64,000 nucleotides of DNA, from contig JARLIA010000001.1 of assembly GCA_031291955.1 (NCBI GenBank), forward strand, positions 5,300-69,299, read 5' to 3'. Shown here in pieces: positions 7,360 to 55,580 of the stretch. The translations under genes were made by a program, and so were the position numbers. Position 1 is the stretch's first letter. Every line of letters starts with the position of its first letter. A model generated the notes under the pieces. That model ran no database searches. It saw only the letters and a program-made list of their open reading frames with translations, and was not told the DNA's origin. This DNA is from Minisyncoccota bacterium. GTDB lineage: Bacteria; Patescibacteriota; Minisyncoccia; Moranbacterales; UBA2206.

Positions 7360-7436
7360 TAAAAATAAATAACTTGAAGATAAACGGGCCAATCACCCGT
7401 TTTGACTTTTTTGGGCTTTAAATATAGAATAAAGTT

Positions 7437-10821: not shown

Positions 10822-11391
10822 ATGAATAAAAAGCCGCTTCTTATTTTAATTTCTGGAGTTCCTGCAACAGGAAAAACAACGTTTGCGAAAAAGATATCTT
10901 CCGCGCTAAAATTGCCGTCATTCTCAGCCGACGAAATAAAAGAACTTATTTCCGATAGAATTTCCGGCAGAGAAAATGTTGAGTTGTTTAATAGAGTGGC
11001 TAGCGCTAGTTATGACATCTTGTACTGTAACTTGAAAAATATTTTAGAAGTTGGCGGTTCATGCGTTGCGGAGGCGCTTTTTATAAAAGAATATTCGGAA
11101 TCCAAAATTAAAGGCTTGCAGGATAAGTTTAGCTGCCGCGTCATTCAGATATATTTGAAAGGCGATGAAAAAATAATTTCGGAAAGATATGACAATCGGC
11201 ATCTAAGCGGAGAGCGTCATGGCAGCCACGTCCCGACGCTGGCGCTTTTATTGAAAAAATATGGCGGATATGATAGTTTAGTTGAAAAATCAAGATTGCA
11301 GGTTGGTGAAACGATAGAAATTGACACAACAGATTTTTCAAAAGTTGATTTTAGCGGGGTGTTTACTAGAATAGAAAATCTATTAAAATAA
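10822..11391 (+). CDS. P-loop NTPase / predicted small kinase (AAA_33-like)
   Basis: It has a Walker A motif (LILISGVPATGKTTFAKK) and is 189 aa. Its start overlaps the pheT stop (ATG at 10822, TAG at 10817-10819). Confidence 0.55.
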   Translation: MNKKPLLILISGVPATGKTTFAKKISSALKLPSFSADEIKELISDRISGRENVELFNRVASASYDILYCNLKNILEVGGSCVAEALFIKEYSESKIKGLQDKFSCRVIQIYLKGDEKIISERYDNRHLSGERHGSHVPTLALLLKKYGGYDSLVEKSRLQVGETIEIDTTDFSKVDFSGVFTRIENLLK

Positions 11392-11393
11392 TC

Positions 11394-11453
11394 ATGAAAG
11401 AAATTCCAAAAACATACGAACCAGGGGAATGTAAAAATAAAATTCGGGGGTAA
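11394..11453 (+). pseudogene. degenerate duplicate of the valS 5' end (19-codon remnant)
   Basis: It translates to MKEIPKTYEPGECKNKIRG*. Compare the genuine valS N-terminus MTMKQEIPRTYEPGKYEDD at 13184, about 1.8 kb downstream. DNA similarity extends over roughly 50 bp. Confidence 0.5.
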
Positions 11454-11484
11454 AATTAGTCTGTGGATAACTTAATATGACTTC

Positions 11485-11514
11485 GGTTTACTTTTTTTTG
11501 GGGGGGGGTATAAT
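11485..11514 (+). promoter_or_regulatory. candidate sigma70-type promoter with a T8G9 homopolymer spacer upstream of the repeat-protein gene
   Basis: A TTTACT-like -35 is followed by a TTTTTTTTGGGGGGGGG spacer (T8 at 11492-11499, G9 at 11500-11508) and then TATAAT at 11509-11514. Confidence 0.4.
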
Positions 11515-11545
11515 CGAAGTAGGTAAGAAAATAAACAAAAAAATC

Positions 11546-13057
11546 ATGGCAAAAAAATTTAAAAAGGCTGGCATTATAATTTCAGGAATTTTGTTTCTGT
11601 TTTTTTATTGCGGGCAAAGCGCTCTGAAAGTGAACGCGGACGATTCTTGGTCAAATGTAGGATCGGCCGGGTTTAGCAGTGATAAGGCTGATAACACACA
11701 AATGTTGTTTAATCCTTCTACCCACGAACCGTATGTTTGTTATGTTAACATTGATGCCGATGAGAATGCATCAGTAGTTGTACAAAAGTACAATGGATCA
11801 TCCTGGCAAGAGATTGGTAGTGCTATACCCATCAGCATAAACCATGATTTTTCCTGCGCTTTTAATCCGGTAACAAATGCGCCGTATGTGGCCTTCACTT
11901 CCCAAGGAACTAGTGTGCAAGTTTTTACAGTCGAAAGGTTTAGTGGTGGGTCGTGGGAACAAGTTGGTAGCACGAACCCAATCCAAATAAGCGAGGCGAG
12001 CGGAATATCACTAGCTTTTAATCCGTCTACCGGCGATCCATACGTTGCTTATGAAACTGTTATTGATGAAAATTATGTGTTAACAGTTTCAAAGTTTGAC
12101 GGAAGCGGCTGGGTGAGTGTGGGTGATCCGATAGAAGATATTGCCAGTGGTGACGCTGTCGCTAAATTAGTTTTTAATCCATCCACGGACAAACCATATG
12201 TTGCATATGTTTTATTTCCTGATTCGGATATTGACCAATTAATTGTAAAAGAATTTAACGGAACAGTTTGGCAAAATGTTGGCAACCCCGGATTAAACAG
12301 TGGGACTGTCGGGTTTGTGTCTGCAGCATTTGATTCCTCATCTGAGATGTACGTAGCCTATTCTGATTATGACTCTTCGCCAGGTGATTTGGTGGTTAAA
12401 AAATTTAACGGAACATCTTGGGCAAACGTTGGGACAGCCGGGGCTATCAGTAGCGGAAATGTTGAAAATGGGTCCATAGTTTTTAATCCCTCGGATGGTA
12501 ATCCTTATGTGGCGTTTAGTGACGATACCAACCAGAAAAAAATGACTGTCGTGAAGTTTGACGGATCAAACTGGAGCGCTGTTGGCTCGGCTGGATTCAG
12601 TGCTGGACAAGCAGATGGAACGTCTCTTGCTTTTAACCCTTCGAATAATGAACCATATGTAGTTTACTCGGATTACGCCAATAATTTAAAAGCTACTGTT
12701 ATGGGATATGACTCAACTTCTTCATCATCTTCATCTTCGCATAATTCCAGCAGTCACCACAAAAAGAAAACACCGCCACCACCGAAAAGAAAAACATACG
12801 ACTCTGCTTCAAAAATTGCCCGGGGACAAATACTGACCCAGTCTGGCAAAAGGTTTACCAAAAACTCCGACGTAGCCCTTTATTTCACCCGCCCAGACGG
12901 CACCTATTATCCGCCGATGACTGTCCATACGACTTCTTCCGGCAGCTTTTCTGTTTCGTATCATGTTACCAAGCCCGCCGGCACATATCATTGGTATGTG
13001 GTTGACTTGAAAAATCTGAATAAAAAAAGTAAAACCCTTTCCTATTCTGTCCACTAG
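11546..13057 (+). CDS. secreted protein with seven ~52-aa tandem repeats (probable beta-propeller), a poly-Ser/Pro linker and a C-terminal Ig-like domain
   Basis: It has a signal peptide (MAKKFKKAGIIISGILFLFFYCGQSALKVNA). Seven repeats share the pattern (S/N)W..VG…FNPS(T/D)..PYVA(Y/F). These are followed by SSSSSSSSHNSSSHHKKKTPPPPKRK and a beta-rich C-terminus. The track's start at 11477 would read through the poly-T/poly-G tract; the ATG at 11546 is the likely start. Confidence 0.7.
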   Translation: MAKKFKKAGIIISGILFLFFYCGQSALKVNADDSWSNVGSAGFSSDKADNTQMLFNPSTHEPYVCYVNIDADENASVVVQKYNGSSWQEIGSAIPISINHDFSCAFNPVTNAPYVAFTSQGTSVQVFTVERFSGGSWEQVGSTNPIQISEASGISLAFNPSTGDPYVAYETVIDENYVLTVSKFDGSGWVSVGDPIEDIASGDAVAKLVFNPSTDKPYVAYVLFPDSDIDQLIVKEFNGTVWQNVGNPGLNSGTVGFVSAAFDSSSEMYVAYSDYDSSPGDLVVKKFNGTSWANVGTAGAISSGNVENGSIVFNPSDGNPYVAFSDDTNQKKMTVVKFDGSNWSAVGSAGFSAGQADGTSLAFNPSNNEPYVVYSDYANNLKATVMGYDSTSSSSSSSHNSSSHHKKKTPPPPKRKTYDSASKIARGQILTQSGKRFTKNSDVALYFTRPDGTYYPPMTVHTTSSGSFSVSYHVTKPAGTYHWYVVDLKNLNKKSKTLSYSVH

Positions 13058-13183
13058 CAGATGCGTGCGAGTTTGATTTTTAGCAGGGTGTTCTTTATAA
13101 GGAGCGCCCTTTCTTTAATTATTTTTTATCTCCTTACATCCTCGCGTTTGACTTTCGCTTGTATTTCGGCTTAAATTAAGAAT

Positions 13184-15802
13184 ATGACTATGAAACAAGA
13201 AATCCCAAGAACCTACGAGCCGGGGAAATATGAGGACGACATTTATGCCCTCTGGGAAAAGTCCGGGTTTTTCAATCCGGATAATTTGAAATTGCCGAAA
13301 AACGCGAAAGCATACACCATTGTTCTGCCACCGCCCAACATCACTGACAAATTGCACTTGGGCCATGGTTCGATCATTGCCATTGAAGATCTGCTAATCC
13401 GTTTCCATCGCATGAAAGGATACAGGGCGCTCTATTTACCCGGAACCGATCACGCCGCGATTGCTACTCAGAACGTGGTGGAGAAAAAACTTCTGAAAGA
13501 AAAAGGACTGACCCGGCAAGAGCTCGGCAAGGAAAAATTCTTGGAAGAAGTTTGGAATTTTTTGCGCGTCACTCAAGCGACCATTCTCCAGCAAGCCAGG
13601 AAGATGGGCGGCTCGTTCGACTGGTCGCGCGAAGCTTTCACGCTGGATGACCAAAGGAAAAAAGCGGTCCGGAAAATGTTTGTCGATATGTACGATGCTG
13701 GAGTGATTTATCGCGGAGAAAGAATTGTCAATTGGTGTCCGCGCTGTAAGTCCACTTTGGCTGATGACGAATTGGAATATCAAGGACAAAAAACAAAATT
13801 ATATACGTTTAAATATGACAAAGACTTTCCGGTTTCGATCGCCACGACGCGTCCCGAAACAAAACTGGGCGACACGGCTGTGGCAGTCAATCCGAAAGAC
13901 GCAAGATACAAAAAACTTATTGGCCGGACTTTTTCCGCGGATTTTTTGGGCGTACCCTTGAAAATAAAGATTATCGCGGACCGCTCAGTCGAAAAAGATT
14001 TTGGGACTGGCGCACTTGGTGTCACGCCGGCCCATTCAATGGCGGATTGGAAGATGGCGGAAGACAATGGTTTGGAAGCAATCAAGGTTATCGATGAAAA
14101 CGGGAAAATTAAAAACAATTTCGGAAAATTTTCCGGTCTCGCTGTCGTGGAGGCAAGGGAAATGATTGTGGCCGAGCTGAAAAAGCACGCTCTCCTGGAA
14201 AAGGAAGAAGAGATAGAAAATAACTTGTCCGTTTGTTACCGTTGCGGCACGGCCGTGGAGCCGCTTCCGAGCAAGCAGTGGTTTGTGGCGGTGGATAAAA
14301 AATTGAAACGCTTGGGAAACAAGTCTTTGAAAGAAAAGGCGCTGGAAGCTGCCAAGAAAAAGAAAATAAAATTTATCCCATTTCGTTTTACCAAAAGATA
14401 TCTGGATTGGATGACCAATCTTCATGACTGGTGCATCTCTCGCCAGATCTGGTTCGGACACGAAATTCCCGTTTATTATAAAGGAGAAGAAATTTATGTG
14501 GGAGAAAAACCGCCGAAAGGTCCGGGTTGGGCGCAAGACCCGGATACATTGGACACCTGGTTTTCTTCCGGGATGTGGACCTTTTCAACTTTGGGCTGGC
14601 CCACCTCCGTCAAGACTTCGGCGGGCAAGCCGGATAAAATAATTAAAACCGGAGATTTGGCGAAGTTCCACCCGACCCAAGTGCTGGAAACAGGCTATGA
14701 AATCATCACGCTTTGGGTGTCGCGCATGGTTATGATGTCGCTTTTTGCGGTAGGTGAAATTCCTTTTGAGAATGTTTATTTGCACGGAATGGTTCTTGAT
14801 AGTTTCGGGAAAAAAATGTCTAAGTCAAAGGGAAACGGAATTAATCCGATCGATATGATAGACAAATTCGGCACTGACGCGGTACGACTGTCGCTTCTCA
14901 TCGGATCGACTCCCGGGAATGACATGCGGCTGTCGGAAGAAAAAATTGCTTCGTTTCGCAATTTCGTCACCAAACTTTGGAACATCTATCGCTACATGGC
15001 GACCACTTATCCGGATTTTAAATTGGTTGATAAGCTGGATAAAAAACATATCAAAACCGCGGCCGACCGTTGGATCGTTTCGCGCCTCCAGGAAACCGTC
15101 GCGGGAATGACAAAAGATCTGGATGATTACAAATTCTCAATGGCCGGCGAAAAACTCCAGCGCTTCACTTGGGACGATCTGGCCGATTGGTATCTGGAAA
15201 TTTCCAAGGTGGAAAAAAATAAGTACGTACTTGGGTACGTACTGACGTATGTACTGAAACTTTCCCATCCTTTCATGCCGTTCGTGACCGAAAAAATATT
15301 CCAAGATATATCTTTTGGCAAGAAAGTTTTGATGGTGGAGAAATGGCCGGCGGCCGACAAGAAGCTGATTGACAAAAAAGCGGAGAAGGAATTCAAGAAT
15401 CTGCAAGAAATAGTAACCCAAATCAGGAATCTTCGGGCTAGTTACAATATCGAGCCCAATAAAGTTATAACGGCTTATGCAAAAAACGAGAAGCATAAAG
15501 AAGCTGTCGAAAAACTAGCGAGGGTAAATATATTTGTTGCAAAGTCAACTGGCAAAGTAGTCGTATTGCCTGATTTCGAATTAGACATCGCTGATGTTAT
15601 TGATGTTGAGAAAGAAAAAGAAAAGATTAAAAAAAATATTACTCTTCTGGAAAATACTATAAGAAGATCGAGAGAGTTGATAAGTAACAAGCAATTTATG
15701 GATAAGTCCCCCAAAGAAGTGAGCAACAGGGCACTTGCTTCAATCGCTTATAATGAAAAAGAACTGAAAGAGCAAAAAGAATTATTGAGAAATTTGAACT
15801 AA
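13184..15802 (+). CDS. valS: valine--tRNA ligase
   Basis: Class I motifs are present (HIGH-like PPPNITDKLHLGHG; KMSKS), with a CP1 editing domain and a C-terminal coiled coil. The product is 872 aa. Confidence 0.95.
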   Translation: MTMKQEIPRTYEPGKYEDDIYALWEKSGFFNPDNLKLPKNAKAYTIVLPPPNITDKLHLGHGSIIAIEDLLIRFHRMKGYRALYLPGTDHAAIATQNVVEKKLLKEKGLTRQELGKEKFLEEVWNFLRVTQATILQQARKMGGSFDWSREAFTLDDQRKKAVRKMFVDMYDAGVIYRGERIVNWCPRCKSTLADDELEYQGQKTKLYTFKYDKDFPVSIATTRPETKLGDTAVAVNPKDARYKKLIGRTFSADFLGVPLKIKIIADRSVEKDFGTGALGVTPAHSMADWKMAEDNGLEAIKVIDENGKIKNNFGKFSGLAVVEAREMIVAELKKHALLEKEEEIENNLSVCYRCGTAVEPLPSKQWFVAVDKKLKRLGNKSLKEKALEAAKKKKIKFIPFRFTKRYLDWMTNLHDWCISRQIWFGHEIPVYYKGEEIYVGEKPPKGPGWAQDPDTLDTWFSSGMWTFSTLGWPTSVKTSAGKPDKIIKTGDLAKFHPTQVLETGYEIITLWVSRMVMMSLFAVGEIPFENVYLHGMVLDSFGKKMSKSKGNGINPIDMIDKFGTDAVRLSLLIGSTPGNDMRLSEEKIASFRNFVTKLWNIYRYMATTYPDFKLVDKLDKKHIKTAADRWIVSRLQETVAGMTKDLDDYKFSMAGEKLQRFTWDDLADWYLEISKVEKNKYVLGYVLTYVLKLSHPFMPFVTEKIFQDISFGKKVLMVEKWPAADKKLIDKKAEKEFKNLQEIVTQIRNLRASYNIEPNKVITAYAKNEKHKEAVEKLARVNIFVAKSTGKVVVLPDFELDIADVIDVEKEKEKIKKNITLLENTIRRSRELISNKQFMDKSPKEVSNRALASIAYNEKELKEQKELLRNLN

Positions 15803-16397: not shown

Positions 16398-16768
16398 ATC
16401 CTAGGTATTTATCAAGGTGGATCGAACGATCGATCTTCGTTTTTGCGAAGGTAGGAAAGTCCGGACTCCATCCGCCATTCCGGCGGAAAACAGGTAGCGG
16501 GTAACGCCCGTCTGGAGCAATCCACGAGGTGCGAGCAGAGACGCCAAGATTAGAAATAATCTCGGCATCCTAAGCGATTAGGATGAGTTCTTATGGCAAC
16601 ATAAGAGGTGAAACGGCTAAATCCTTACTCGGGAGCAAGGTCGTGTTCTGTGTTTTTAGCTAAACACGGAAAGTGCCGCTCGAGGCCGCCAGCAATGACG
16701 GTCCCAGATAAATGATCGTTCTCGACAGAATCCGGCTTACAGATCCGCCTTGATAAATACCTATAACT
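16398..16768 (+). ncRNA. rnpB: RNase P RNA (bacterial type A)
   Basis: Universally conserved elements are present: GGAAAGUCCGGACUCC (P4 5' strand), GGGUAACGCC, AAGAGGUGAAACGG, and ACAGAAUCCGGCUUA (P4 3' strand). A long P1 helix pairs 5' AGGTATTTATCAAGGTGGATC (16403-16423) with 3' GATCCGCCTTGATAAATACCT (16742-16762). The region is about 370 nt and ORF-free. Confidence 0.85.
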
Positions 16769-16794: not shown

Positions 16795-18264
16795 ATGGTT
16801 GCGAATATTCGTTTTTCATTAGCTGGAATTCGCTCTGCTTTAGCGATTATGAAGAGATCCGAACTTTTTTTTAGTTTCATCCAGGTGCCGGTGGACTATC
16901 TGATGATAGTGCTCGCCGCCCTTTCGGCTTTCCTGATCCGAAACGTCCCGGAAGTCCTCTCGCTGAAACCAAAACTTTACACTTTTCATTTCCATATCTA
17001 TCTGGAAATAGTTTTAGCTGTCGCGCCTATTTTCATTCTGATTTACGCCATGGAAGGCCTTTATGATATCCGCGTTACCCGGAAATTCTGGAAGGAGATG
17101 GTGCGGATTTTTTCAGCCACTTCCATCGGCCTGGTTTTGATTATCGTGGCAATTTTCTTGCAACGGGAATGGTTTTCTTCCCGCTTTGTCATCTTGGCGG
17201 CTTGGGGGCTGGCCACGCTTTATGTTGTCATCGCCCGTTATCTCATTCAGCTCATTCAAAAATGGCTGCTCAGGAGTCGCGGTATCGGTGTTCACCGGGT
17301 GCTGCTTATCGGTCATAACGGCAAGATGGATTTTATCGCCAAAAGCATCCGTCGCGACAGAAGTTTGGGCTATAAGATTGTTGACCAGGTCAACTCGGCC
17401 AGTCTCAAAGTGGTGAAGTCGGTCAAGCAAGACAAGGGGATTGACGAAATTATCCTTTGCGAGCCGTCACTCACCGAAGATGAGCAGGAAAAGCTGATTG
17501 ACTATTGCGCCATCCATAATGTCAAATATAAATATATTCCGACCAGTCGGGAAACCACCCGCTATGATATCGGGGTTTTCAACGGCGAACCGCTTATCGA
17601 AGTCAAAAACACGCCACTGGACGGTTGGGGGCGGATTGCCAAGCGCTTTCTGGATGTCGTGGCAGCCACGCTTGGCATCGTTGTTACTTCACCGATCATG
17701 CTGGCGACGGCTTTGGCCATCAAGCTGGACAGCGACGGGCCGGTGATTTATCGTAATGAGCGCATCGGCGACGACGGCCGGAAATTTTTCGTCTATAAAT
17801 TCCGCTATTTCAAGAACGAATATTGTATTTCCAAGGACAATCCCGATCTCAAAAAAGCCCTGGAGCTGGAAAATAAATTGATTGAAAAACAAAGTGTCAG
17901 AAAAGGGCCGCTGTATAAAATCAAAAACGATCCGCGGAAGACCCGCGTGGGCGCGATAATCGAAAAATATTCCATCGATGAATTGCCGCAATTTTTCAAT
18001 GTTCTTTTCGGTTCGATGAGCATCGTCGGTCCGCGCCCGCACCAGAAACGGGAAGTGGAAAAATATATGGAATATCACCGGCGGCTGCTCACCATTCGTC
18101 CCGGGATAACCGGTATGGCTCAGATTTCCGGCCGTTCAGATCTGGATTTCGAGAAAGAATACCGTCTGGATTTATACTATATCGAGAACTGGAGTATCTG
18201 GCTGGATTTCCAAATACTTTTCAAAACTTTCGGGGTGTTGTTTCGGAAAAGAAGAAATTCATGA
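16795..18264 (+). CDS. polyprenyl-phosphate sugar phosphotransferase (Bac_transf/WbaP-like priming glycosyltransferase)
   Basis: It has N-terminal TM helices, a central Rossmann-like region and a C-terminal bacterial sugar transferase domain (…DELPQFFNVLFGSMSIVGPRPH…ITGMAQISGRSDLDFE). An alternative start is the ATG at 16849 (MKRSELFF). Confidence 0.8.
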   Translation: MVANIRFSLAGIRSALAIMKRSELFFSFIQVPVDYLMIVLAALSAFLIRNVPEVLSLKPKLYTFHFHIYLEIVLAVAPIFILIYAMEGLYDIRVTRKFWKEMVRIFSATSIGLVLIIVAIFLQREWFSSRFVILAAWGLATLYVVIARYLIQLIQKWLLRSRGIGVHRVLLIGHNGKMDFIAKSIRRDRSLGYKIVDQVNSASLKVVKSVKQDKGIDEIILCEPSLTEDEQEKLIDYCAIHNVKYKYIPTSRETTRYDIGVFNGEPLIEVKNTPLDGWGRIAKRFLDVVAATLGIVVTSPIMLATALAIKLDSDGPVIYRNERIGDDGRKFFVYKFRYFKNEYCISKDNPDLKKALELENKLIEKQSVRKGPLYKIKNDPRKTRVGAIIEKYSIDELPQFFNVLFGSMSIVGPRPHQKREVEKYMEYHRRLLTIRPGITGMAQISGRSDLDFEKEYRLDLYYIENWSIWLDFQILFKTFGVLFRKRRNS

Positions 18265-19364
18265 AAATCGCTCTCGTCCATGACTATCTCGTCCAGAACG
18301 GCGGCGCCGAAAAAGTGCTAGAGGCTTTTTGCGAACTTTATCCGGAAGCGCCGATATATACTTTGGTTTATAGTCCAAAATTGATGCATGGCGCGTTCGA
18401 AGGAAGAGATATCCGCACTTCATTTTTGCAAAAGTTTCCTTTGGCCGCCGGTCGCCACCGGGTTTTTCCGCAATTCATGCCCTTTGCCATTGAAGGATTC
18501 GATCTTTCCGGATACGACGTAGTGCTGTCCGATTCGTCGAGTTTTGCTAAAGGCGTCATTACCGGGCCGGAAACGCTTCATATCTGCTATATGCACACGC
18601 CGATGAGATTCGCCTGGGATGATTGTCAGAAATATACCAGCGATTTCTATTTTCCAAACCTCATCAAAAAAGCGGTGCCGTTTTTCATGAACTACATCCG
18701 TCTTTGGGATCGGGCCAGTGCCGACCGGCCGGATCGGATCATCGCCAATTCTCGCTTCGTTTCCCGCCGGATAAAAAAATATTATAAACGCGACAGCCTG
18801 GTTATCAATCCGCCGGTGAATATTGGTAATTTTCAGACTAGCCGGGAGAAAGGAAATTATTTTTTAGCTGCCGGCCGCCTCATGGCCTACAAACGCTTCG
18901 ATATTATCATTGAAGCATTTAACCGATTGGGACTGCCACTCAAGATTATCAGCCGTGGGCCGGAAATGAAACGTCTTCAAAAGATGGCCAAGTCCAACAT
19001 TGAATTTCTGGGGCGGGTGAGCGATGCCGAGCTTACCCAATATTTCTCATCTTGCCAGGCTTTCATTTTCCCTCAAGAAGAAGATTTCGGCATTATTGCG
19101 ATTGAGGCCATGGCTTCCGGCACGCCGATTATCGCTTACCGCGGCGGAGATATTCCGGAGCATACGGAGGAAGGCAAAACGGGAATATTTTTTGACGAGC
19201 AGACGCCGGAAGCTATTATGGAAGTCGTTAAAAATTTTGATTGCAAACAATTTGACCCGGAATATATCCGCCAAAGCGTTTTGAAATTTGACAAAAGCGT
19301 CTTTAAGGCTAAAATAAAAGACTACGTCGAAAGCGAGTATAACCAGTTTAAAAGCCAGTCGTAG
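18261..19364 (+). CDS. glycosyltransferase family 4
   Basis: It shows the GT-B fold pattern (MKIALVHDYLVQNGGAEKV…; C-terminal EDFGIIAIEAMASGTPIIAY). It has an ATGA start/stop overlap with the upstream gene. Confidence 0.8.
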   Translation: MKIALVHDYLVQNGGAEKVLEAFCELYPEAPIYTLVYSPKLMHGAFEGRDIRTSFLQKFPLAAGRHRVFPQFMPFAIEGFDLSGYDVVLSDSSSFAKGVITGPETLHICYMHTPMRFAWDDCQKYTSDFYFPNLIKKAVPFFMNYIRLWDRASADRPDRIIANSRFVSRRIKKYYKRDSLVINPPVNIGNFQTSREKGNYFLAAGRLMAYKRFDIIIEAFNRLGLPLKIISRGPEMKRLQKMAKSNIEFLGRVSDAELTQYFSSCQAFIFPQEEDFGIIAIEAMASGTPIIAYRGGDIPEHTEEGKTGIFFDEQTPEAIMEVVKNFDCKQFDPEYIRQSVLKFDKSVFKAKIKDYVESEYNQFKSQS

Positions 19365-19370
19365 CCATTT

Positions 19371-20534
19371 ATGAAAATTGCAATCGATGTCCGTTGTCTA
19401 ACGGATGGTCGCCGGACGGGCGTGGAAGAATACACACTTAGCCTCTTGGAAAATATTTTTGAAATAGATCGGAAGAACAAGTATGTTCTTTTTTTGAATG
19501 CTTGGAAAGAGCCGCGTTTTGATTTTTCAACTCTCGAAAAATATCCGAACGTTAAACTGAAAAGACTCCGGATTCCCAATAAGCTTCTCAATTTTTCTTT
19601 TTGGTATCAGGATTGGCCCAAAATAAACCGCTTAGTCGGAGGAGCGGACATTGTTTTTTCGCCCAACATTATTTTTGGCGCGGTCAGCAAATACGTAAAG
19701 CATGTCACAACCATTCACGACTTGTCGTTTGAAAGGTATCCGGAATATTTTTCCCAGAAACGGCGCTGGTGGCATATTTTCATCAACGCCCGAAAAATCT
19801 GCCGGCAGGCGAACAGAATTATTGCTGTTTCCGAATCAACCAAAAAAGATGTCGTCTCGCTCTACGGCATAGACCCGCAAAAAATCGCCGTCATTCCGAG
19901 CGCCGTTTCGGATAAATTTCGAATCATCAATAGGAACGACGCCAAACTGGTTAAGGTCAAGGAAAAATATAATTTGCCGTATAAGTTTATTTTGTTTTTG
20001 GGGACGATCGAACCGCGGAAAAATATCGTTGGTCTGGTGCGGGCTTTTTCGGCTTTCCAAAAATTTGCCCGGGAAAACAAGAAAGATGATCTGCAAAAAT
20101 ATAAGCTTGTCATCGCGGGCAGTTCCGGCTGGAAGAATGAGGGAATATTCCAAGAGATCAATAATTCCGAATCCAAGGATGATATCCAAGTCATCAACTT
20201 CGTGGATGATGAGGACAAGCCCTATATATATAATCTGGCGTCGCTTTTTGTTTACCCGTCTTTTTTCGAAGGCTTCGGCTTTCCGCCGTTGGAAGCGATG
20301 AAGTGCGGCGTGCCGGTGATTGCGTCGAACAATTCTTCCCTTCCGGAAATTGTCGGCAACGCGGGGATTTTGATCGACCCGGACAAACCGGAAGAAATTT
20401 TCCGCGCCATGCGGGAAGTTCTTTCGAGTCGCGAACTTCAGCTTGAGCTCATCAAAAAAGGTTTTGAAAAAGCCGATCAATTCGCCTGGAAAAAAACTGC
20501 CCAAAAAACGCTTGAAATATTTGAAACAACTTAA
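19371..20534 (+). CDS. glycosyltransferase family 4
   Basis: The GT4 signature is present (LFLGTIEPRKNI…; EGFGFPPLEAMKCGVPVIASNNSSLPEIVG). Confidence 0.85.
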   Translation: MKIAIDVRCLTDGRRTGVEEYTLSLLENIFEIDRKNKYVLFLNAWKEPRFDFSTLEKYPNVKLKRLRIPNKLLNFSFWYQDWPKINRLVGGADIVFSPNIIFGAVSKYVKHVTTIHDLSFERYPEYFSQKRRWWHIFINARKICRQANRIIAVSESTKKDVVSLYGIDPQKIAVIPSAVSDKFRIINRNDAKLVKVKEKYNLPYKFILFLGTIEPRKNIVGLVRAFSAFQKFARENKKDDLQKYKLVIAGSSGWKNEGIFQEINNSESKDDIQVINFVDDEDKPYIYNLASLFVYPSFFEGFGFPPLEAMKCGVPVIASNNSSLPEIVGNAGILIDPDKPEEIFRAMREVLSSRELQLELIKKGFEKADQFAWKKTAQKTLEIFETT

Positions 20535-20629
20535 ACACTTTTATAACTAGCTCAAAAACATGAATACGTAAAGAGCGGGGCAAAAGCCTCGCTCAATTTG
20601 AAATTATTATATAATTTTGATTAACGCTT

Positions 20630-21073
20630 TTAGAATAAAAAGTTGCCAGACCAACCGGACCAACTTTTTCCTGGTTGTTTGATCCTTACTTTTACACTAT
20701 ACAAAAAACTTTTGTTCTGAGTTATGCTATTATCGGGAATGCTGGATAAGTCTATTGCGGAACCGGCCGAGCTGCAAGCAGTATTAACGGTGCCGGATCG
20801 GTTGGCGGCTTTTGGCGGATTGTATTTTATATCAGTGTATTTTTTGCCCTTTAATATATACCTGGCTTTTATTATCTGACCATTTACTACTGGTGAAATC
20901 TGGAAATGCACGCGAACTGAACGAAGTTGATAAGGTGTGCCAGTTGAATAAGAAGTGCCTGCCGCCTCTGTAATCCTGGGCGTGGGGCTTTTGGCTGCTA
21001 CGGCCACACTGGTTTGAACTCCCAAAAAAGCAGTGATGGCCACACTGGCGACAAGAAGCGATTTTTTAATCAT
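20630..21073 (-). CDS. small secreted protein, function unknown
   Basis: It has a signal peptide (MIKKSLLVASVAITAFLGVQTSVAVAA). It is convergent with the upstream GT4 gene, and a GAGCGGGG…CCTCGCTC hairpin lies between them. Confidence 0.45.
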   Translation of the reverse strand: MIKKSLLVASVAITAFLGVQTSVAVAAKSPTPRITEAAGTSYSTGTPYQLRSVRVHFQISPVVNGQIIKARYILKGKKYTDIKYNPPKAANRSGTVNTACSSAGSAIDLSSIPDNSITQNKSFLYSVKVRIKQPGKSWSGWSGNFLF

Positions 21074-21328
21074 ATTTTATTTTAATTATTTATTAATGAT
21101 ATGTTATAATTCGCTAACTCGCATATTAATTTTACTTGAATTTTTCAAAGTGTCCACCGGGCTCTTTTGAAAAGTTATCCACAGGTCAAAACTTTGTTTA
21201 ATTTAGCCTTGTTCGAAAAACGCTTGCCGTGTTTGTGAGTTTTGTAAAAAAGTAAATCCCAGTTTTGTTCAATGGCAATTTGTGGTATGATCAAGATGTT
21301 AATATTTTAAGAATAAATCAAAAGCTTT

Positions 21329-21865
21329 ATGGAATTTTCCCTAAATAAAAATAAAAAAAGTAGCATTTTAAAATCCAGATGGTTCATTAGCATTATCGGT
21401 GTAATTATGGTTTTTGCGCTAACTAGCGGAAATATTTTCTATAGTGATTTCGCTGCATCTGATATATATTTCGCTTTATTTTTTTTGGTATGTTTTATTA
21501 TCGCGTTGCTAATATTTTTTTATAAACAGAAAGCTTTTGGTAATTTTGTTGCGGACGAGGAGGGAATAAAAGTTAATGACAAGTTATATTCTTGGGATAA
21601 GGCCATTAATTACCATTGGCTAGGTGAAGCTCAGGGAGAAAGAATAGGTGCGGTTGGCATAGGCGGCGCATTGCAATATGACCCAATGAATCCCAATGAA
21701 TTTGCTGATACAAAAGTGGCTAGAATCAAAATTAAGGAAGGTCTTTTCCGTCATTCTTATATAAATCTAGAAGTTGATAATAATAAGGCGGGTGATTTAG
21801 TGAATGTTTTTGAACAACATCAAGTAAAACATCTTTCCCAATGGCGTGAGATAGTGGGAATATAA
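21329..21865 (+). CDS. membrane protein, function unknown
   Basis: It has two N-terminal TM helices followed by a soluble domain. I see no recognisable motifs. Confidence 0.4.
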   Translation: MEFSLNKNKKSSILKSRWFISIIGVIMVFALTSGNIFYSDFAASDIYFALFFLVCFIIALLIFFYKQKAFGNFVADEEGIKVNDKLYSWDKAINYHWLGEAQGERIGAVGIGGALQYDPMNPNEFADTKVARIKIKEGLFRHSYINLEVDNNKAGDLVNVFEQHQVKHLSQWREIVGI

Positions 21866-21892
21866 AACTTGTCGGGGCAATATCAAGATAAA

Positions 21893-23029
21893 ATGAAACA
21901 AAAAGTCAAAAAAGTTTCCAAATGGATTTTAGCGGTTGTTTTGGCCTACGTGATTGTTCTCGTCGGCGGATTTTTCGGCATCAAATATGGACTGACCAAT
22001 ACGGCCGGGATAGTGGACGGGGAAAATAATTATTTCCAGAAATCCGAGAACCAAATTTCGAGGATGCAAAAGGTGGAGGGCGTTTCAACTGAAAACGCGA
22101 AAGTCGACCAGCTAAAAAATTTGAACGATTGCCAGATTGCTGCCATCGGCCAGTATTATCCGGCCAATGCACAAAAAATAATTGCCGCTTATCAAGAAAC
22201 GAATAGCGATCCACTGATTGCCAAGATGATTCTGGCGGTCGATTTGCGGATGCTGGACAATCCCGATTTTCAGAAAAAATACGCCGCCTGCCAAACGGAA
22301 AGCTACGCGGAAAACAATTCGGAAAGTCTGGACACGCTGGCTCAGAAATTTCCGGAAAATTCCAGTCAGAACGTCTTTCCCTGGATGAACCGGTCGGAAT
22401 GGCAGACGATCGCCGCCGCAACCATAAAAGACAAAGACGCTATCGACAAGGCCGGCAAGAGTGCCGGCGTGGAGCCGAGAATGATTGTGGCCTGCATGAT
22501 CGTGGAACAACTCCGGCTTTTCAACTCCGAGCGGGAAGTTTTCAAAAAAGTTTTTGAGCCTTTGAAAATCTTGGGGAACGCCGATCAGATTTCTTTGGGT
22601 GTCATGGGTGTCAAACAGCAAACGGCCGAAAAAATTGAAAACAATTTGAAAGACCAGTCTTCTCCCTATTATCTTGGCCAGCAGTACGAACACCTTTTGG
22701 ATTATCTGCCCGGGACGACCGACATCAATCAGGCGAGATTTGCCCGCCTCACCGACGAAAGCGACAATCATTATTATTCATATCTTTACGGCGCGCTATA
22801 TCTGCGCGAGATGCTGGAACAGTGGCGGCGAAGCGGATTCAATATTCAATACCGAATGGAAATCGTCGGCACGCTTTTCAACGTCGGCTTTCCCCAATCC
22901 AAACCGAACCCCGATCCCAAGGTGGGTGGCTCTTCAATCGATGTGGGCGACGGCAAATATTCCTTCGGCTCGCTGGCCTATGAGTTTTACTATTCCGGCG
23001 AACTGACGGACGAATTCCCATACAAATAG
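21893..23029 (+). CDS. membrane-anchored hypothetical protein (possibly a distant SLT-like fold)
   Basis: There is a single N-terminal TM (ILAVVLAYVIVLVGGFFGI). The segment …ISLGVMGVKQQTAEKI… faintly resembles the SLT 'GLMQ' motif. The likely ATG is at 21893; the track's start at 21869 is a TTG. Confidence 0.45.
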   Translation: MKQKVKKVSKWILAVVLAYVIVLVGGFFGIKYGLTNTAGIVDGENNYFQKSENQISRMQKVEGVSTENAKVDQLKNLNDCQIAAIGQYYPANAQKIIAAYQETNSDPLIAKMILAVDLRMLDNPDFQKKYAACQTESYAENNSESLDTLAQKFPENSSQNVFPWMNRSEWQTIAAATIKDKDAIDKAGKSAGVEPRMIVACMIVEQLRLFNSEREVFKKVFEPLKILGNADQISLGVMGVKQQTAEKIENNLKDQSSPYYLGQQYEHLLDYLPGTTDINQARFARLTDESDNHYYSYLYGALYLREMLEQWRRSGFNIQYRMEIVGTLFNVGFPQSKPNPDPKVGGSSIDVGDGKYSFGSLAYEFYYSGELTDEFPYK

Positions 23030-23080
23030 AGCAGCCTTTCACGGGTTTAATACTCGCTTTTTTTGTGCTAAGATTAAGCC

Positions 23081-24208
23081 ATGAGAATCGGCATTGACGC
23101 CCGGTTTTACGGCCCCATCGGCAAGGGGCTGGGGCGGTATACCCAAAAATTAATAGAAAATTTGGAAAAGGTTGACCAAGTCAACCAGTATTTTATTTTC
23201 CTGAAAAAGGAAAATTTCGACGAATACCAGCCCAAAAATCCCAATTTCCAAAAAGTGCTGGCCGATTACCGCTGGTACACTTTTGCCGAACAATTGAAAT
23301 TTCCGCGGCTCTTAAAAAAATACAAACTGGACCTGGTGCATTTCACTCATTTTAACGTGCCCCTTTTTTATTTCGGGAAATTCGTGGTCACCATCCACGA
23401 TCTCATCCTCCTTCATTTTCCTACCATTCGCAGCTCCACTTTGTCGCCGCTGAAATACAAATTAAAATTCTGGGCTTATAAAATCATCATTAATTCGGCC
23501 ATTCATCGGTCAAGCCGTATCATTGCGGTGTCCCGCTTTACTAAATATGACATCCTGGAAAATTATCCCCGTATTCCTCAGGAAAAAATCGCCGTTACTT
23601 ACGAAGCTTGCGATGATTATTGTCTTTTTAATCCGAAAAAAACCGAGGAAGTTTTGGCGCGCTATGGTATAATGAAGCCGTACATCCTTTATGTCGGCAA
23701 CGCCTATCCGCACAAAAATCCGGAGCGGTTGATCCGGGCTTTCAAAAAACTGGAAAATTATCCGGCCGATCTCAAACTAGTTTTTGTGGGCACGGAAGAT
23801 TATTTCTACCGGCGCTTAAAGCAGCAAGCGATTGACGAGAAAGTGGCAAATGTTATCTTCGCTGGTTTTGTGCCTGATTATGACCTGGATGGCGTTTTTC
23901 GGGGCGCTCTGGCTTACATCCGCCCATCGCTTTATGAAGGTTTTCAATTGCCGCCGCTCGAGGCCATGGCTCGCGGTGTTCCAGTGCTCTGCTCGGATCA
24001 TCCGGGCGCCGCGGAGGTTTTGGGCGAAGCCGCTTGCTACTTTAAAATGGAAGATATTGACGATATGGTGCGAGTCATAAAATTAATCGCGGAAGATGAG
24101 GCTCTGTGTCGGGAGTTGCAGGAAAAAGGTTACGAACAAGTTAAGAAATACAGCTGGAAAAAAATGGCCCGTGAAACTTTGGAGCTATATACAAAAATAA
24201 AATTATAG
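23081..24208 (+). CDS. glycosyltransferase family 4
   Basis: The GT4 pattern is present (MRIGIDARFYG…; YEGFQLPPLEAMARGVPVLCSDHPGAAEVLG). Confidence 0.85.
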   Translation: MRIGIDARFYGPIGKGLGRYTQKLIENLEKVDQVNQYFIFLKKENFDEYQPKNPNFQKVLADYRWYTFAEQLKFPRLLKKYKLDLVHFTHFNVPLFYFGKFVVTIHDLILLHFPTIRSSTLSPLKYKLKFWAYKIIINSAIHRSSRIIAVSRFTKYDILENYPRIPQEKIAVTYEACDDYCLFNPKKTEEVLARYGIMKPYILYVGNAYPHKNPERLIRAFKKLENYPADLKLVFVGTEDYFYRRLKQQAIDEKVANVIFAGFVPDYDLDGVFRGALAYIRPSLYEGFQLPPLEAMARGVPVLCSDHPGAAEVLGEAACYFKMEDIDDMVRVIKLIAEDEALCRELQEKGYEQVKKYSWKKMARETLELYTKIKL

Positions 24209-24209
24209 G

Positions 24210-26612
24210 ATGGGGGAAAGGAAAAAAATATTGCCGCAAATGTTTGATGTCCGGCCGATTGACAAGGCCGGCAATTTGGATTTGGAAAAAATAAACAAGG
24301 TTGAGAAAGTGACTCATCTGCCGGAGAAAGTCGTGGTGAAAAACAACACCCCGAGGGAGATTCGGAAGATAAATGAAGTGGCTAGGCCGAAAGTTGTCCG
24401 AAGTCCGATGCCTCGTTTCAAAAAAGAGTTTATTCCCCTGAGCAAACCGCGAGTGGAAAAAGTTCATGAGCCCCCTATAAATCAGCATCATTTTGAGAAT
24501 ATCCGGAGCAACTCGCTAGAGTTTGAAAATGGAGACGAATTTTACGAGTTTGGAAATTTGCCGGGAGGACCGAACTATGAGGCGCCTTCCAAATATGCTT
24601 ATCGTCCGATTCGACCGCGCGCCAAGAAAGATTGGCGCGGAAAATTTTATTTTTCCCTAAAAATCGTTATCGCATTTTTAGTTATTTTTTTCATTCTCAA
24701 TGGCGTTTATGTGGCCTATCAATTGAAAAACAACGCTTATCCTCAAGGAGAGGCGGCTATTTTGTCCCTAAAAACAGCCAAATCCAGCCTTGAACAGCGC
24801 AACTTTCAAGCTGCCGCCGATCAGTTCCAAAAAGCCAACGACAACTTCAGCGCTATTTCGAGCGAGTTGGGGACCGAGGGAACTATTTTGGCCGGTATGA
24901 CCAAATATGTGCCGTATCTTTCCAAGGCATCTTCCGGCACTCATTTGCTGGCAGCTGGAAAGGATCTTTCCCAATCTGGCGTTCTGGCTTCTGGTGTTTT
25001 GGAGCAGCTCAATAATCTTCGTGCCAAGACGGCTTCTGGCACGCCGGTTTCTTATTTGAAATTTTTTCAAGACAATGAAAGCAATCTGAAAACAACCGAT
25101 GCACTGCTAAAGGACGCTCAGAATAATCTGGCTTCGGTAAACGCGGATGATTTGCCCGACAAATATAAGGATGAATATATCCAAATGAATCAGTATGTGG
25201 GGAAGGCCGCTATTTTGTTGGATGATATTCTGGGTCAAAAAAATATGATTGCTGATATTCTTGGCGGAAACGGTCCGCGGAAATATCTATTTTTGTTCGA
25301 AAATAACCAGGAAATGCGCGCTACCGGCGGATTTATCGGCAGTTATGGCGAACTGGATATTTTCAATGGACGAGTAGAGAAGTTTTTTATGGATGGGATC
25401 TATGATCCAGATGGACAATTAAAAACCCGGATCGTGCCGCCCGGACCCGTTCAAAAAATCAGTGCCAACTGGAGCATGCATGACAGCAATTGGTGGCCGG
25501 ATTTTCCCACCAGCGCTCAAAAGATCGCCTGGTTCTACGAACAAGCCGGTGGGCCGACGGTAGACGGCGTGATCGCCATTACGCCAACTGTTCTCCAAGA
25601 TTTGTTGGCGATAACCGGACCGATTCCGATGCCCAGCTACGGTGTTACGGTCGATCAAAATAATTTTATCCCAGTAATTCAATACAAAGTGGAGGTGGAT
25701 TATGACAAGACCGCTAATCATCCCAAGCAGATTCTTTCCGATTTGGCGCCGAAAATTATCAATAAAATAATTAACGACGGCAATCTGGATGATGTGGCCA
25801 AGATGGCCAATTCAATTTTGGGAAACTTGAATGAAAAGCAGATTCAACTTTATTCGAGAAATCCACAGGTGGAAAATCTCATGGATCAGAATAGTTGGTC
25901 GGGCCGGATTCTGTCTACGCCAAAAGATTATGTCAGCGTCATAAACACCAACATCAATGGCTTTAAAACGGACGGAGTGATTGATCAAAGCATTTCCCAT
26001 GACGCCAAAATTCAGTCGGATGGCAGCGTTATGGACACTTTGACAATTACACGGCGCCACAATGGCGGCAACACGCCCTACGATTGGTGGAATCAGGTCA
26101 ATGATGACTATATGCGGGTCTATGTACCTGAAGGAGCCAAGCTCTTGAGCGCGACGGGCGCGACTCGCGAGACCGATGCGCCGCCGCTTGATTATAACGC
26201 GCTCGGATATCAACGCGACTCATTATTGGAAGCGGAAGAAAACGCGACAAAAATCGATCCAAATTCTGGCACTCGGATATATGACGAAGATGGTAAGACT
26301 GTTTTTGCCAATTGGGTGTACGTCAGCCCCCAGGAAAGCGTGATAGTGAAATATACTTACCTTTTGCCCTTCAAGGTTGATCCAAGCCAGGTTTCGCTTG
26401 GTACGTATTCTCTTTTGGCGCAAAAACAAGCCGGCAGTCTTGGTTCTAAATTTAAAAGCACGCTCGAATATCCGGGCGCTTGGAATCCGATTTGGGAAAA
26501 TCCGGGTGATGGTCTCGAGACCATAAATGGCTTGCCCGATGAGCAAAAGGGGGTTAAGATGAAAGCTGATTTAAAAACAGACAGGTTTATCGGCATAGCC
26601 TTTGCGAAATAG
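24210..26612 (+). CDS. large membrane-anchored extracellular protein, DUF4012-like
   Basis: It has a central TM (IVIAFLVIFFILNGVYVAY) and a large C-terminal domain with a DUF4012-type motif (FLFENNQEMRATGGFIGSYG…). Its position between a GT and murJ is typical of cell-wall glycopolymer loci. Confidence 0.55.
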   Translation: MGERKKILPQMFDVRPIDKAGNLDLEKINKVEKVTHLPEKVVVKNNTPREIRKINEVARPKVVRSPMPRFKKEFIPLSKPRVEKVHEPPINQHHFENIRSNSLEFENGDEFYEFGNLPGGPNYEAPSKYAYRPIRPRAKKDWRGKFYFSLKIVIAFLVIFFILNGVYVAYQLKNNAYPQGEAAILSLKTAKSSLEQRNFQAAADQFQKANDNFSAISSELGTEGTILAGMTKYVPYLSKASSGTHLLAAGKDLSQSGVLASGVLEQLNNLRAKTASGTPVSYLKFFQDNESNLKTTDALLKDAQNNLASVNADDLPDKYKDEYIQMNQYVGKAAILLDDILGQKNMIADILGGNGPRKYLFLFENNQEMRATGGFIGSYGELDIFNGRVEKFFMDGIYDPDGQLKTRIVPPGPVQKISANWSMHDSNWWPDFPTSAQKIAWFYEQAGGPTVDGVIAITPTVLQDLLAITGPIPMPSYGVTVDQNNFIPVIQYKVEVDYDKTANHPKQILSDLAPKIINKIINDGNLDDVAKMANSILGNLNEKQIQLYSRNPQVENLMDQNSWSGRILSTPKDYVSVINTNINGFKTDGVIDQSISHDAKIQSDGSVMDTLTITRRHNGGNTPYDWWNQVNDDYMRVYVPEGAKLLSATGATRETDAPPLDYNALGYQRDSLLEAEENATKIDPNSGTRIYDEDGKTVFANWVYVSPQESVIVKYTYLLPFKVDPSQVSLGTYSLLAQKQAGSLGSKFKSTLEYPGAWNPIWENPGDGLETINGLPDEQKGVKMKADLKTDRFIGIAFAK

Positions 26613-53871: not shown

Positions 53872-55035
53872 ATGAAGAAAAACAAAAACATCGTCATTGG
53901 CATCAATGCAAGTTTCATCAGAAAGCCCAACAATGGCATCGGGCAAGTGACTGCCAATTTCCTAAAAACTTTGGCACGAATCACGAATCACGAATCACGA
54001 ATCATTTTGTATCTAGAAGAAGATCTGCCGCGTGATTTCAAGTTGCCGAAAAATTTTGAAAAAAGGATTTTTTTGCCGCCTTGGAAACGCGATGATTTGA
54101 TCCGCAAAATCTGGTGGGAAAAATATTCTCTGCCGAAAAAAATCAAAAAAGACAAGTGTGATGTTTTTCTCAGTCTCTACCAGTGCCCGACGATTTTAGA
54201 GGGTGACACAAAACACATAATGCTCGTTCATGATATTGTTCCTAAATTATTTCCCGAATATCTGGATAATTCGCGCAAGAAACATTATTGGCAGCTGACC
54301 GAATATGCGATCGCAAGGACCGACAAAGTTCTCACTGTTTCGCGCCACACGGAAAAAGATCTGATCAACTATCTGAATATTCCCGCCGGAAAAATCACAC
54401 CCAACTATATCGATGTTGACGAGATTTACAAAAAAAGCGTTTCTCAAAAAGAATCCGCCCGGGTACTGAAAAAATATAAACTGAAACCAGGCTACATCCT
54501 GGCCGGCGGGGGAATGGAGATTCGGAAAAACGTCGAAGGAGTTTTTCATGCCTACAAATTCATGCTGGAGAGAGGGCTGGCGGAAGATCTGCCGCCGCTG
54601 GTCGTCTTCGGAAAAATCCTGCCCAATCTTTCCCTGGCTTTCGACGCGGAAAATTTCTTGAAAGTCCTGAATATGACTAAGAAAGTGAGGCTTCTGGATA
54701 TGGTGCCGCAAAAAGATATGCCGGCTCTTTACAAAAACTCGTCCTTTTTCGTCTACCCATCGTATTATGAAGGATTTGGCATGCCGCCGCTCGAAGCTAT
54801 GAACCAAGGGAAGTCCGTCATTGTTTCTAAAAACTCATCTCTCCCCGAAGTGGGCGGCGACGGCGTCCTCTATTGCCAAGCCGACGACATTTATGATATC
54901 GCTATGGTCATGAAAAACGTCCTCTCCAACCCGCAACTCCGCGAAGATTTGTCTCGCCGGGCCAAACTCCAGGCTGAAAAATTCTCGTGGGAAAGGTTTG
55001 TGAAGAAAGTTCTGAATATAGTCAATGAGATCTGA
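53872..55035 (+). CDS. glycosyltransferase family 4
   Basis: The GT4 pattern is present (MKKNKNIVIGINA…; YEGFGMPPLEAMNQGKSVIVSKNSSLPEVGG). A (CACGAAT)4 heptamer repeat sits near the 5' end. TATAAT lies just upstream of the ATG at 53872. Confidence 0.8.
   Translation: MKKNKNIVIGINASFIRKPNNGIGQVTANFLKTLARITNHESRIILYLEEDLPRDFKLPKNFEKRIFLPPWKRDDLIRKIWWEKYSLPKKIKKDKCDVFLSLYQCPTILEGDTKHIMLVHDIVPKLFPEYLDNSRKKHYWQLTEYAIARTDKVLTVSRHTEKDLINYLNIPAGKITPNYIDVDEIYKKSVSQKESARVLKKYKLKPGYILAGGGMEIRKNVEGVFHAYKFMLERGLAEDLPPLVVFGKILPNLSLAFDAENFLKVLNMTKKVRLLDMVPQKDMPALYKNSSFFVYPSYYEGFGMPPLEAMNQGKSVIVSKNSSLPEVGGDGVLYCQADDIYDIAMVMKNVLSNPQLREDLSRRAKLQAEKFSWERFVKKVLNIVNEI
53975..54004 (+). repeat. perfect heptanucleotide tandem repeat (CACGAAT)x4 inside the GT4 CDS
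   Basis: Counted directly as cacgaat cacgaat cacgaat cacgaat ca. It encodes ARITNHESRII. The unit length is not a multiple of 3. Confidence 0.85.
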
Positions 55036-55552
55036 AAATAGAAAATCAAATCGTTTGGTGGGATATGATTATTCGCAAGAGGGAATGTACTTCGTCACTT
55101 TTTGCACGAAGGAAAGGATTGAATGGTTTGGTGAAGTAAAAAATGGCGAAATGCTCTTAAACAAATATGGCGAGATCACTGAACAACAATTAAGCTGGCT
55201 GGCGAAACAATATAAATACATCAATATTGATTGCAAAATTGTAATGCCAAATCACGTACATACCATTTTGGAAATTCTCCCAGACGTTGAAATCGTAGGG
55301 ACAGGTCGCGACCTGTCCCTACGATTTCAACAATCGAAAATAAAACCGCTGCCCGAATTAATCGGCGCCCTGAAAACCACATCATCAAAATTGATTCACA
55401 GAAATGGATTTAATGATTTCGCCTGGCAAAGATCCTATTGGGATCGCATTATCCGCGACGAAGCAGAACTGAACCGTATCCGCGAATATATTTTCAATAA
55501 CCCGCAAAATTGGGAGCAAGATCGAAACAACTCGGAAAATATTTTTATGTAA
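55025..55552 (+). CDS. Y1 HuH transposase-family protein (IS200/RAYT-like, probably single-copy or domesticated)
   Basis: It has the RAYT-type N-terminus (GYDYSQEGMYFVTFCTKERIEWFG), the HuH motif (VMPNHVHTILEI), and a Tyr motif (FAWQRSYWDRIIRDEAELNRIREYIFNNPQNW). It overlaps the upstream GT4 stop by 11 nt. Confidence 0.7.
   Translation: MRSENRKSNRLVGYDYSQEGMYFVTFCTKERIEWFGEVKNGEMLLNKYGEITEQQLSWLAKQYKYINIDCKIVMPNHVHTILEILPDVEIVGTGRDLSLRFQQSKIKPLPELIGALKTTSSKLIHRNGFNDFAWQRSYWDRIIRDEAELNRIREYIFNNPQNWEQDRNNSENIFM
55286..55331. repeat. 46-bp perfect palindrome inside the HuH-transposase-like CDS
   Basis: The sequence is GTTGAAATCGTAGGGACAGGTCG|CGACCTGTCCCTACGATTTCAAC, and I checked both halves base by base. 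It lies between the HuH and Tyr motifs and encodes …VEIVGTGRDLSLRFQQ…. Confidence 0.9.
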
Positions 55553-55580
55553 TTTTAAAATAAAAAAAGACCCCGACACT

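Follow-up and report, generated by a model that had tools for sequence, protein, structure and literature searches.

Does a T8G9 homopolymer tract upstream of a gene for a secreted repeat protein in a Minisyncoccota genome act as a phase-variation switch? This possibility was raised by an earlier note on a 64-kb stretch of DNA (64,000 nucleotides of contig JARLIA010000001.1, assembly GCA_031291955.1; hereafter the window, with all features on the + strand unless indicated otherwise), which had described the tract as abutting a perfect TATAAT and lying downstream of a TTTACT-like −35. Direct reading confirmed this description base for base. The candidate −35 hexamer TTTACT (11487–11492), which was also picked up by the consensus scan and the strict promoter scan, is followed by a run of eight T residues (11492–11499), the first of which is the last base of the hexamer while the other seven belong to the spacer, by a directly abutting, pure run of nine G residues (11500–11508) and by the candidate −10 hexamer, a perfect TATAAT (11509–11514) located 31 nt upstream of the ATG at 11546. 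The two homopolymers fill the whole of the 16-nt spacer (T7G9), and G9, its slippage-prone part, is uninterrupted and falls within the range in which G/C homopolymers are hypermutable (about 7–8 or more).

No G/C run in the window other than G9 exceeds six nt. G/C runs of 4, 5, 6, 7, 8 and 9 nt were observed 118, 20, 2, 0, 0 and 1 times, respectively, against Markov expectations of about 245, 61, 15, 3.7, 0.9 and 0.2, and in 24 related Moranbacteria loci (456 kb) the corresponding counts were 816, 161, 9, 7, 0 and 0. G/C runs are strongly depleted both in the window and in its relatives, particularly those of seven or more, and G9 is a clear outlier against the empirical decay of run lengths, departing from this general avoidance. 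By composition alone such a run is not improbable, since 24% of the 64-kb sequences simulated with a first-order Markov model had a G/C run of at least nine and a G8 was common among dinucleotide shuffles of the window. The T8 run is unremarkable in this A+T-rich genome, with six T8 and five A8 runs present in the window.

The arrangement TTTACT-16-TATAAT was the best σ70-type site between 10.5 and 13.5 kb, matching the consensus at 10 of 12 positions (consensus scan), and it is correctly oriented towards the repeat-protein gene. The strict promoter scan returned 19 sites in the window versus 10.9 ± 3.3 expected, and the T8G9 site was among the five of these located in intergenic DNA, which makes up 6.6% of the sequence. 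A reference for promoter layout in this clade was provided by the region upstream of pheS, read in loci L004–L038 and with its counterpart in the window at 7402–7436: about 15 Moranbacteria loci have in common the promoter TTTTGACTTTTTT, with a total spacer of 17 nt, the −10 hexamer TAgAAT and 6 nt between this hexamer and the ATG. The combination of a TTGACT −35, a T-run and a short distance from −10 to ATG implies that the predicted transcripts are leaderless. Within the window, several genes that come first in their operons (pheS, valS and those with starts at 23081 and 38953) have the same layout, and a −10-to-ATG distance of 5–9 nt was found at these genes as well as at the gene starting at 53872. 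Relative to the clade layout, the T8G9 site has one mismatch in the −35 hexamer (TTTACT matches TTGACT at 5 of 6 positions and is followed by a T-run, as in the pheS promoters of the clade), a perfect −10 and a spacer one base short of 17, and it would give rise to a leader of ~25 nt, unlike typical promoters of the clade. The pheS promoter of the same genome reads TTGACT-TTTTTGGGC, its spacer beginning with TTTTTGGG. The earlier note's placement of the tract in a promoter spacer fits this picture well, the site being the best candidate upstream of the gene and in keeping with the layout conserved in relatives, and we consider it likely that it functions as a promoter. The 9-mer TTGACTTTT was rejected as a diagnostic motif, as it is too common when one mismatch is allowed (62 matches versus 41 expected). 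Shine-Dalgarno-like motifs are nearly absent from the window, with about 4 of 52 predicted genes carrying one within ≤20 nt of the start, and most start codons are preceded by A/T-rich sequence; the genome appears to be rich in leaderless starts. The conserved leaderless promoter layout is a practical guide to start-site annotation in the clade.

The gene downstream of the tract (11546–13057; NCBI MDR3582744.1, P4L62_00065, hypothetical protein) codes for a 503-aa secreted protein with a canonical Sec signal peptide (MAKKFKKAGIIISGILFLFFYCGQSALKVNA) and seven FNPS..PYVAY repeats. An AlphaFold model built from 52 sequences (mean pLDDT 83, about 95 over residues 35–388) comprised a signal helix, seven four-stranded blades (residues 35–388), a disordered Ser/Pro/Lys linker (395–435) and a C-terminal beta-sandwich. 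Foldseek matched the model to beta-propellers, including the seven-bladed Photorhabdus PLL lectins and the LGI1 EPTP domain, with target-normalised TM-scores of 0.62–0.73, so that the original description of a secreted, seven-repeat and probably beta-propeller protein was borne out by signal peptide, repeat number and predicted fold. No convincing Pfam or NCBIfam family was found for the repeat protein. Its 482 homologues (E ≤1e-5) include many from Bacteroidota that carry T9SS sorting domains as well as some encoded by CPR genomes, the best non-self homologue being 46% identical. The signal peptide together with the lectin-like propeller fold predicts a product of the secreted or surface type, a trait that is typical of phase-variable genes without defining them, and the modelled fold would be compatible with a lectin or adhesin role. 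The comparison with pathogen surface antigens that had accompanied the original proposal is not directly applicable, the organism being an environmental CPR bacterium. Its source MAG is labelled Candidatus Pacebacteria at NCBI; by similarity of pheS, pheT and valS, the nearest species representatives belong to Moranbacteria/Moraniibacteriota, with a pheT identity of at most 69% (GTDB representatives).

The genes of the locus are arranged in the order pheS, pheT, an AAA_33 kinase-like gene, the repeat-protein gene and valS. In the closest relatives valS directly follows pheT, and the repeat-protein gene is absent between them. Alignment to the valS start of relatives revealed a remnant of a valS 5' end at 11396–11455, upstream of the tract, consisting of 19 codons (MKEIPKTYEPGECKNKIRG*) and sharing 33 of 37 nt with the valS start of one relative (L018). 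The intervening DNA is flanked by an imperfect direct repeat (about 50 bp), with its left copy at 11382–11430 and its right copy at the 5' end of the working valS (13175–13228); alignments of the remnant and the direct repeat scored 52–67, whereas shuffled sequences averaged about 30 (sd about 5). The terminator scan identified a terminator-like hairpin with a T-rich tail at 13085–13110. The order of valS after pheT in relatives, together with the valS remnant and direct repeat, shows that a cassette specific to this lineage has entered the locus at the valS 5' end; it comprises the repeat-protein gene, the region upstream of this gene and the hairpin, which marks the 3' end. The present valS is preceded by a promoter-like site, TTGACT-18-TAAATT (13148–13177), which ends 6 nt before its ATG at 13184 and the −10 of which extends into the right-hand copy of the direct repeat. 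Inside the cassette, the T8G9 tract is roughly 10–60 nt away from the left boundary, and the G+C content of the cassette does not stand out. A 25-nt inverted repeat (11474–11498/13022–13046) was considered as a pair of terminal inverted repeats and judged to be due to chance, being 76% complementary, of low complexity (T7/A7) and one of 18 such pairs. Relatives of the kinase-like gene in JGI metagenomes reached 37% identity at best, and a 188-aa ORF located between pheT and valS in locus L003, considered as a homologue of this gene, proved not to be homologous. Perfect DnaA-box 9-mers (TTATCCACA) occur at only two places in the window, 11462–11470 (− strand) and 21175–21183 (+ strand), both of them intergenic; identity between the two sites extends over 13 nt (CTGTGGATAACTT), and the window showed no dnaA gene. 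The box at 11462–11470 probably derives from valS codons that have decayed (NPDNL region).

A second promoter-like site, TTTACT-16-TAAAAT (11362–11389, strict promoter scan), is situated upstream of the tract inside the 3' end of the kinase-like gene. It ends 6 nt before the ATG of the valS remnant at 11396, a spacing that corresponds to the leaderless layout of the clade, and it is probably the ancestral leaderless valS promoter. As the terminator scan detected no terminator-like site between 11391 and 11546, transcription from 11362–11389 could read through into the cassette independently of tract length, and the tract would consequently tune expression of the repeat-protein gene rather than switch it. 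The simple ON/OFF switch suggested by the earlier note is unlikely for this reason and because the present 16-nt spacing corresponds to an intermediate state.

The reading that we favour, with a probability of roughly 40%, is that T8G9 is the slippage-prone spacer of a σ70-type promoter and gives rise to graded, reversible variation in the expression of the propeller protein. According to this model, a cassette that was inserted recently would have a promoter at its left end with the tract as 16-nt spacer, and the pure G9 run would be prone to slipped-strand mispairing during replication, generating cells with G8 or G10 at an elevated rate and, less often, with T7 or T9. The gain of one base (G10 or T9) would restore the 17-nt spacing typical of the clade and strengthen the promoter, whereas the loss of one base (G8 or T7) would reduce the spacer to 15 nt and weaken it. 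The outcome would be a dial similar to that of porA, that is, reversible and graded expression on top of any read-through from 11362–11389. Among the points that count against this mechanism is that the window contains no other long G/C tract, organisms with contingency loci usually carrying many of them.

The closest known counterpart is porA of Neisseria meningitidis, in which a poly-G tract separates the −35 from the −10 and in which surface expression obtained with 11G is reduced 2-fold with 10G and 13-fold with 9G (PMC3639595). As in porA (and also in opc and fetA, the tracts of this group being poly-G or poly-C), the promoter spacer, a predicted one in the present case, upstream of an exported-protein gene holds a G/C homopolymer (9–11 in porA, G9 here), and single-base slips are predicted to shift the hexamer spacing around the 17-nt optimum, with graded expression as the result (PMC3639595). 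In porA, variation and its effect on expression are experimental findings and the tract varies among strains, whereas for the present tract both are predictions. Moreover, it differs from porA in being composite (T7 + G9), in filling the whole spacer, in having an upstream promoter-like site that may bypass it, and in belonging to an uncultivated environmental CPR bacterium, with no other G/C-tract locus evident in 64 kb, instead of a mucosal pathogen. Spacer repeats of other types are known from Mycoplasma hyorhinis vlp genes (a poly-A tract) and from Haemophilus influenzae hifA/hifB (TA repeats in overlapping promoters), where the length of the spacer decides promoter activity and where the genes code for surface proteins of small-genome, host-associated bacteria. 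T8G9 resembles these systems in that a simple-sequence repeat occupies the region between −35 and −10, here candidate hexamers; it differs from them in repeat type and in that vlp and hif are multi-gene families that switch combinatorially, while here a single acquired gene is concerned. The hif reference is among those cited in PMC5084427. Within the CPR, a hypervariable array of coding 9-mer repeats (PTD repeats) subject to slipped-strand variation has been described in a Gracilibacterium (Sieber et al. 2019, PMC6851277). The two cases have in common a CPR genome and a presumed cell-surface or host-interaction protein, and they differ in that the Gracilibacterium array alters the protein sequence, while a promoter homopolymer such as T8G9 would alter the level of expression. 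A literature search for promoter-homopolymer phase variation in CPR/Patescibacteria found no report, the Gracilibacterium coding array being the nearest case and the only mention of slipped-strand variation at repeats encountered for a CPR genome. On the basis of these comparisons T8G9 is a credible candidate for phase variation of the Neisseria porA type and, the mechanism itself being well known, the first candidate of this type found for CPR bacteria.

The available sequences were searched for variation in tract length. All four consensus assemblies that contain the locus, namely the source MAG and three Logan runs (SRR23300977, SRR23300978 and SRR23300979), have the identical 30-mer with T8G9 and show no length variant, which is weak negative evidence given that all four probably go back to a single population sampled in one study and that minority variants do not show in a consensus. 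A search of the literature for the three runs and the locus-tag prefix yielded nothing relevant. No 503-aa gene call, as would be expected from +1 or −1 variants, is on record in the contig collection, and a scan of JGI metagenomes with the exact flanks and a variable spacer of 10–24 nt gave 0 matches. The three nearest propeller homologues have no homopolymer tract in their upstream regions. In the collections searched there was no related strain carrying the cassette, the next propeller homologue and the next pheT being the distant ones given above (46% and at most 69% identity). A second assembly, GCA_031291895.1, is very fragmented, with contigs that break at low-complexity repeats, and no contig spanning the tract was recovered from it.

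These data also bear on the possibility that the promoter is real and the tract incidental, that is, an unused, neutral by-product of the recent insertion or of the chance expansion of a T-run and a short G-run, in which length variants may occasionally arise without any biological role. We regard this as a serious possibility, though at less than even odds. The identical consensus in four assemblies, the presence of a single such tract in 64 kb and the lack of one upstream of homologues are all in line with it. The same is true of the position of the tract: roughly 10–60 nt from the left insertion junction, next to a valS remnant that is still recognisable, it must be considered young. In addition, the start of the pheS spacer in the same genome (TTTTTGGG) is a plausible seed for an expansion, and the Markov model leaves a G9 run not very improbable. 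On the other hand, the strong avoidance of G/C runs of seven or more in this genome and in related ones makes it a notable coincidence that G9 sits precisely where a single base alters promoter geometry, and a G9 run would slip whether it is selected or not.

The promoter hexamers and the tract are also part of an imperfect palindrome (11480–11520), the outer arms of which, a perfect 6-bp inverted repeat (ACTTCG at 11480–11485 and CGAAGT at 11515–11520), bracket the −35/tract/−10 unit exactly, while the inner arms contain the two hexamers and the homopolymers form the centre. Folding energies were lower than those of shuffled sequences both for DNA (−4.6 kcal/mol, z = −3.5, equalled by 1 of 200 shuffles) and for RNA (−14.2 kcal/mol, z = −3.9, equalled by 0 of 200 shuffles), raising the question of whether a DNA or RNA hairpin, and not the promoter, is the operative element. 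Transcripts starting at about 11396, which the upstream promoter-like site could supply in view of the missing terminator, would carry the stem-loop in a 150-nt leader; with U8 and G9 engaged in wobble pairing, the structure might affect mRNA stability or processing, or else the palindrome might be a protein-binding site. We consider such a role improbable, despite the folding scores and the exact bracketing, as a helix under selection would hardly be built from eight G.U pairs in a row and the start codon lies outside the hairpin. An intrinsic (Rho-independent) terminator was rejected because the hairpin is followed by AGGTAAGAAAATAAAC and not by a T-run, and a search of Rfam gave no match.

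An even less probable alternative, which we rate as very unlikely, is that the tract is coding. Translation from an ATG at 11477 would yield a 526-aa protein in which the tract is read as FFLGGG, and slips of +1 or −1 would result in translational ON/OFF switching. The ORF from 11477 is indeed uninterrupted and, with T8G9, reads through the tract in the frame of the main ORF, the Logan gene caller chose this start and the 526-aa form, and all +1 and −1 variants terminate after 11–16 codons. The ATG at 11546 is nevertheless the preferred start, because it places the signal peptide at the N-terminus, agrees with the NCBI annotation and is preceded by an A/T-rich leader lacking a Shine-Dalgarno motif, as is typical of this genome. 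With the signal peptide beginning at this Met, a start at 11477 would add an atypical extension of 23 residues in front of it; moreover, no promoter-like site was found for 11477, an open frame over 23 codons is not significant in itself, and after a frameshift translation could still begin at 11546 in a genome largely devoid of Shine-Dalgarno motifs. Finally, a sequencing or assembly artefact, such as the poly-G stretches known from two-colour Illumina chemistry, is effectively refuted by the concordance of independent assemblies, the tract being only 9 nt long (G9), embedded in long contigs and the same in four assemblies from three runs, with the surrounding 6.5 kb identical as well (locus L001 agrees with the window at each of 6,570 positions).

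Returning to the slippage-prone promoter spacer, a further question is what variation of this kind could mean for the organism. A life attached to host cells is assumed for CPR/Patescibacteria, and the examples of surface variation known from them comprise diversity-generating retroelements and a single coding repeat array. Were the tract to vary in length, environmental ultra-small bacteria would join the animal pathogens from which such a mechanism is mainly known, and the propeller protein would deserve study as a factor in interactions with a host or substrate; if the tract is invariant, the locus would represent nothing more than an unusual spacer in the promoter of a gene acquired recently. 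That T8G9 is part of a true CPR contingency locus, in which slippage in the T/G tract stochastically tunes an acquired lectin-like propeller for attachment to host cells or substrates, is a more demanding proposal, and we think it unlikely. Should it be true, then in conjunction with a heptamer repeat located 42 kb away in a glycosyltransferase gene it would show that ultra-small episymbionts diversify their surface by simple-sequence-repeat phase variation.

This second repeat, a perfect (CACGAAT)x4.3 at 53975–54004, is found towards the 5' end of a gene for a GT4-family glycosyltransferase (53872–55035, + strand) within a polysaccharide cluster, with a UDP-glucose dehydrogenase gene and a Wzy-like gene as neighbours. 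As the heptamer unit is not a multiple of three, the gain or loss of a copy would shift the reading frame, and the repeat is a second candidate simple-sequence switch with the layout of classic translational phase variation. A contig of GCA_031291895.1 (L137) is 100% identical to the window over 53988–55898 and starts inside the repeat, a break that is uninformative because this assembly is so fragmented. The 3' end of the glycosyltransferase gene is overlapped by 11 nt by a gene (55025–55552, + strand) with a weak match to IS200-like Y1 transposases (PF01797), which contains a 46-nt perfect palindrome (55286–55331). Downstream of the T8G9 locus, a class A RNase P RNA was identified at 16414–16755 (+ strand; Rfam RF00010, 140 bits, E = 4.7e-43). 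It occupies a gap of 607 nt without ORFs, with valS and a small ORF on one side and a sugar-transferase gene on the other, and gaps of similar length are present in two related loci (L004 and L018). The neighbourhood of T8G9 is rich in cell-envelope functions: a surface-polysaccharide cluster located a few kb downstream of the tract (16795–26612) includes genes for a bacterial sugar transferase, three GT4 glycosyltransferases and a DUF4012 protein.
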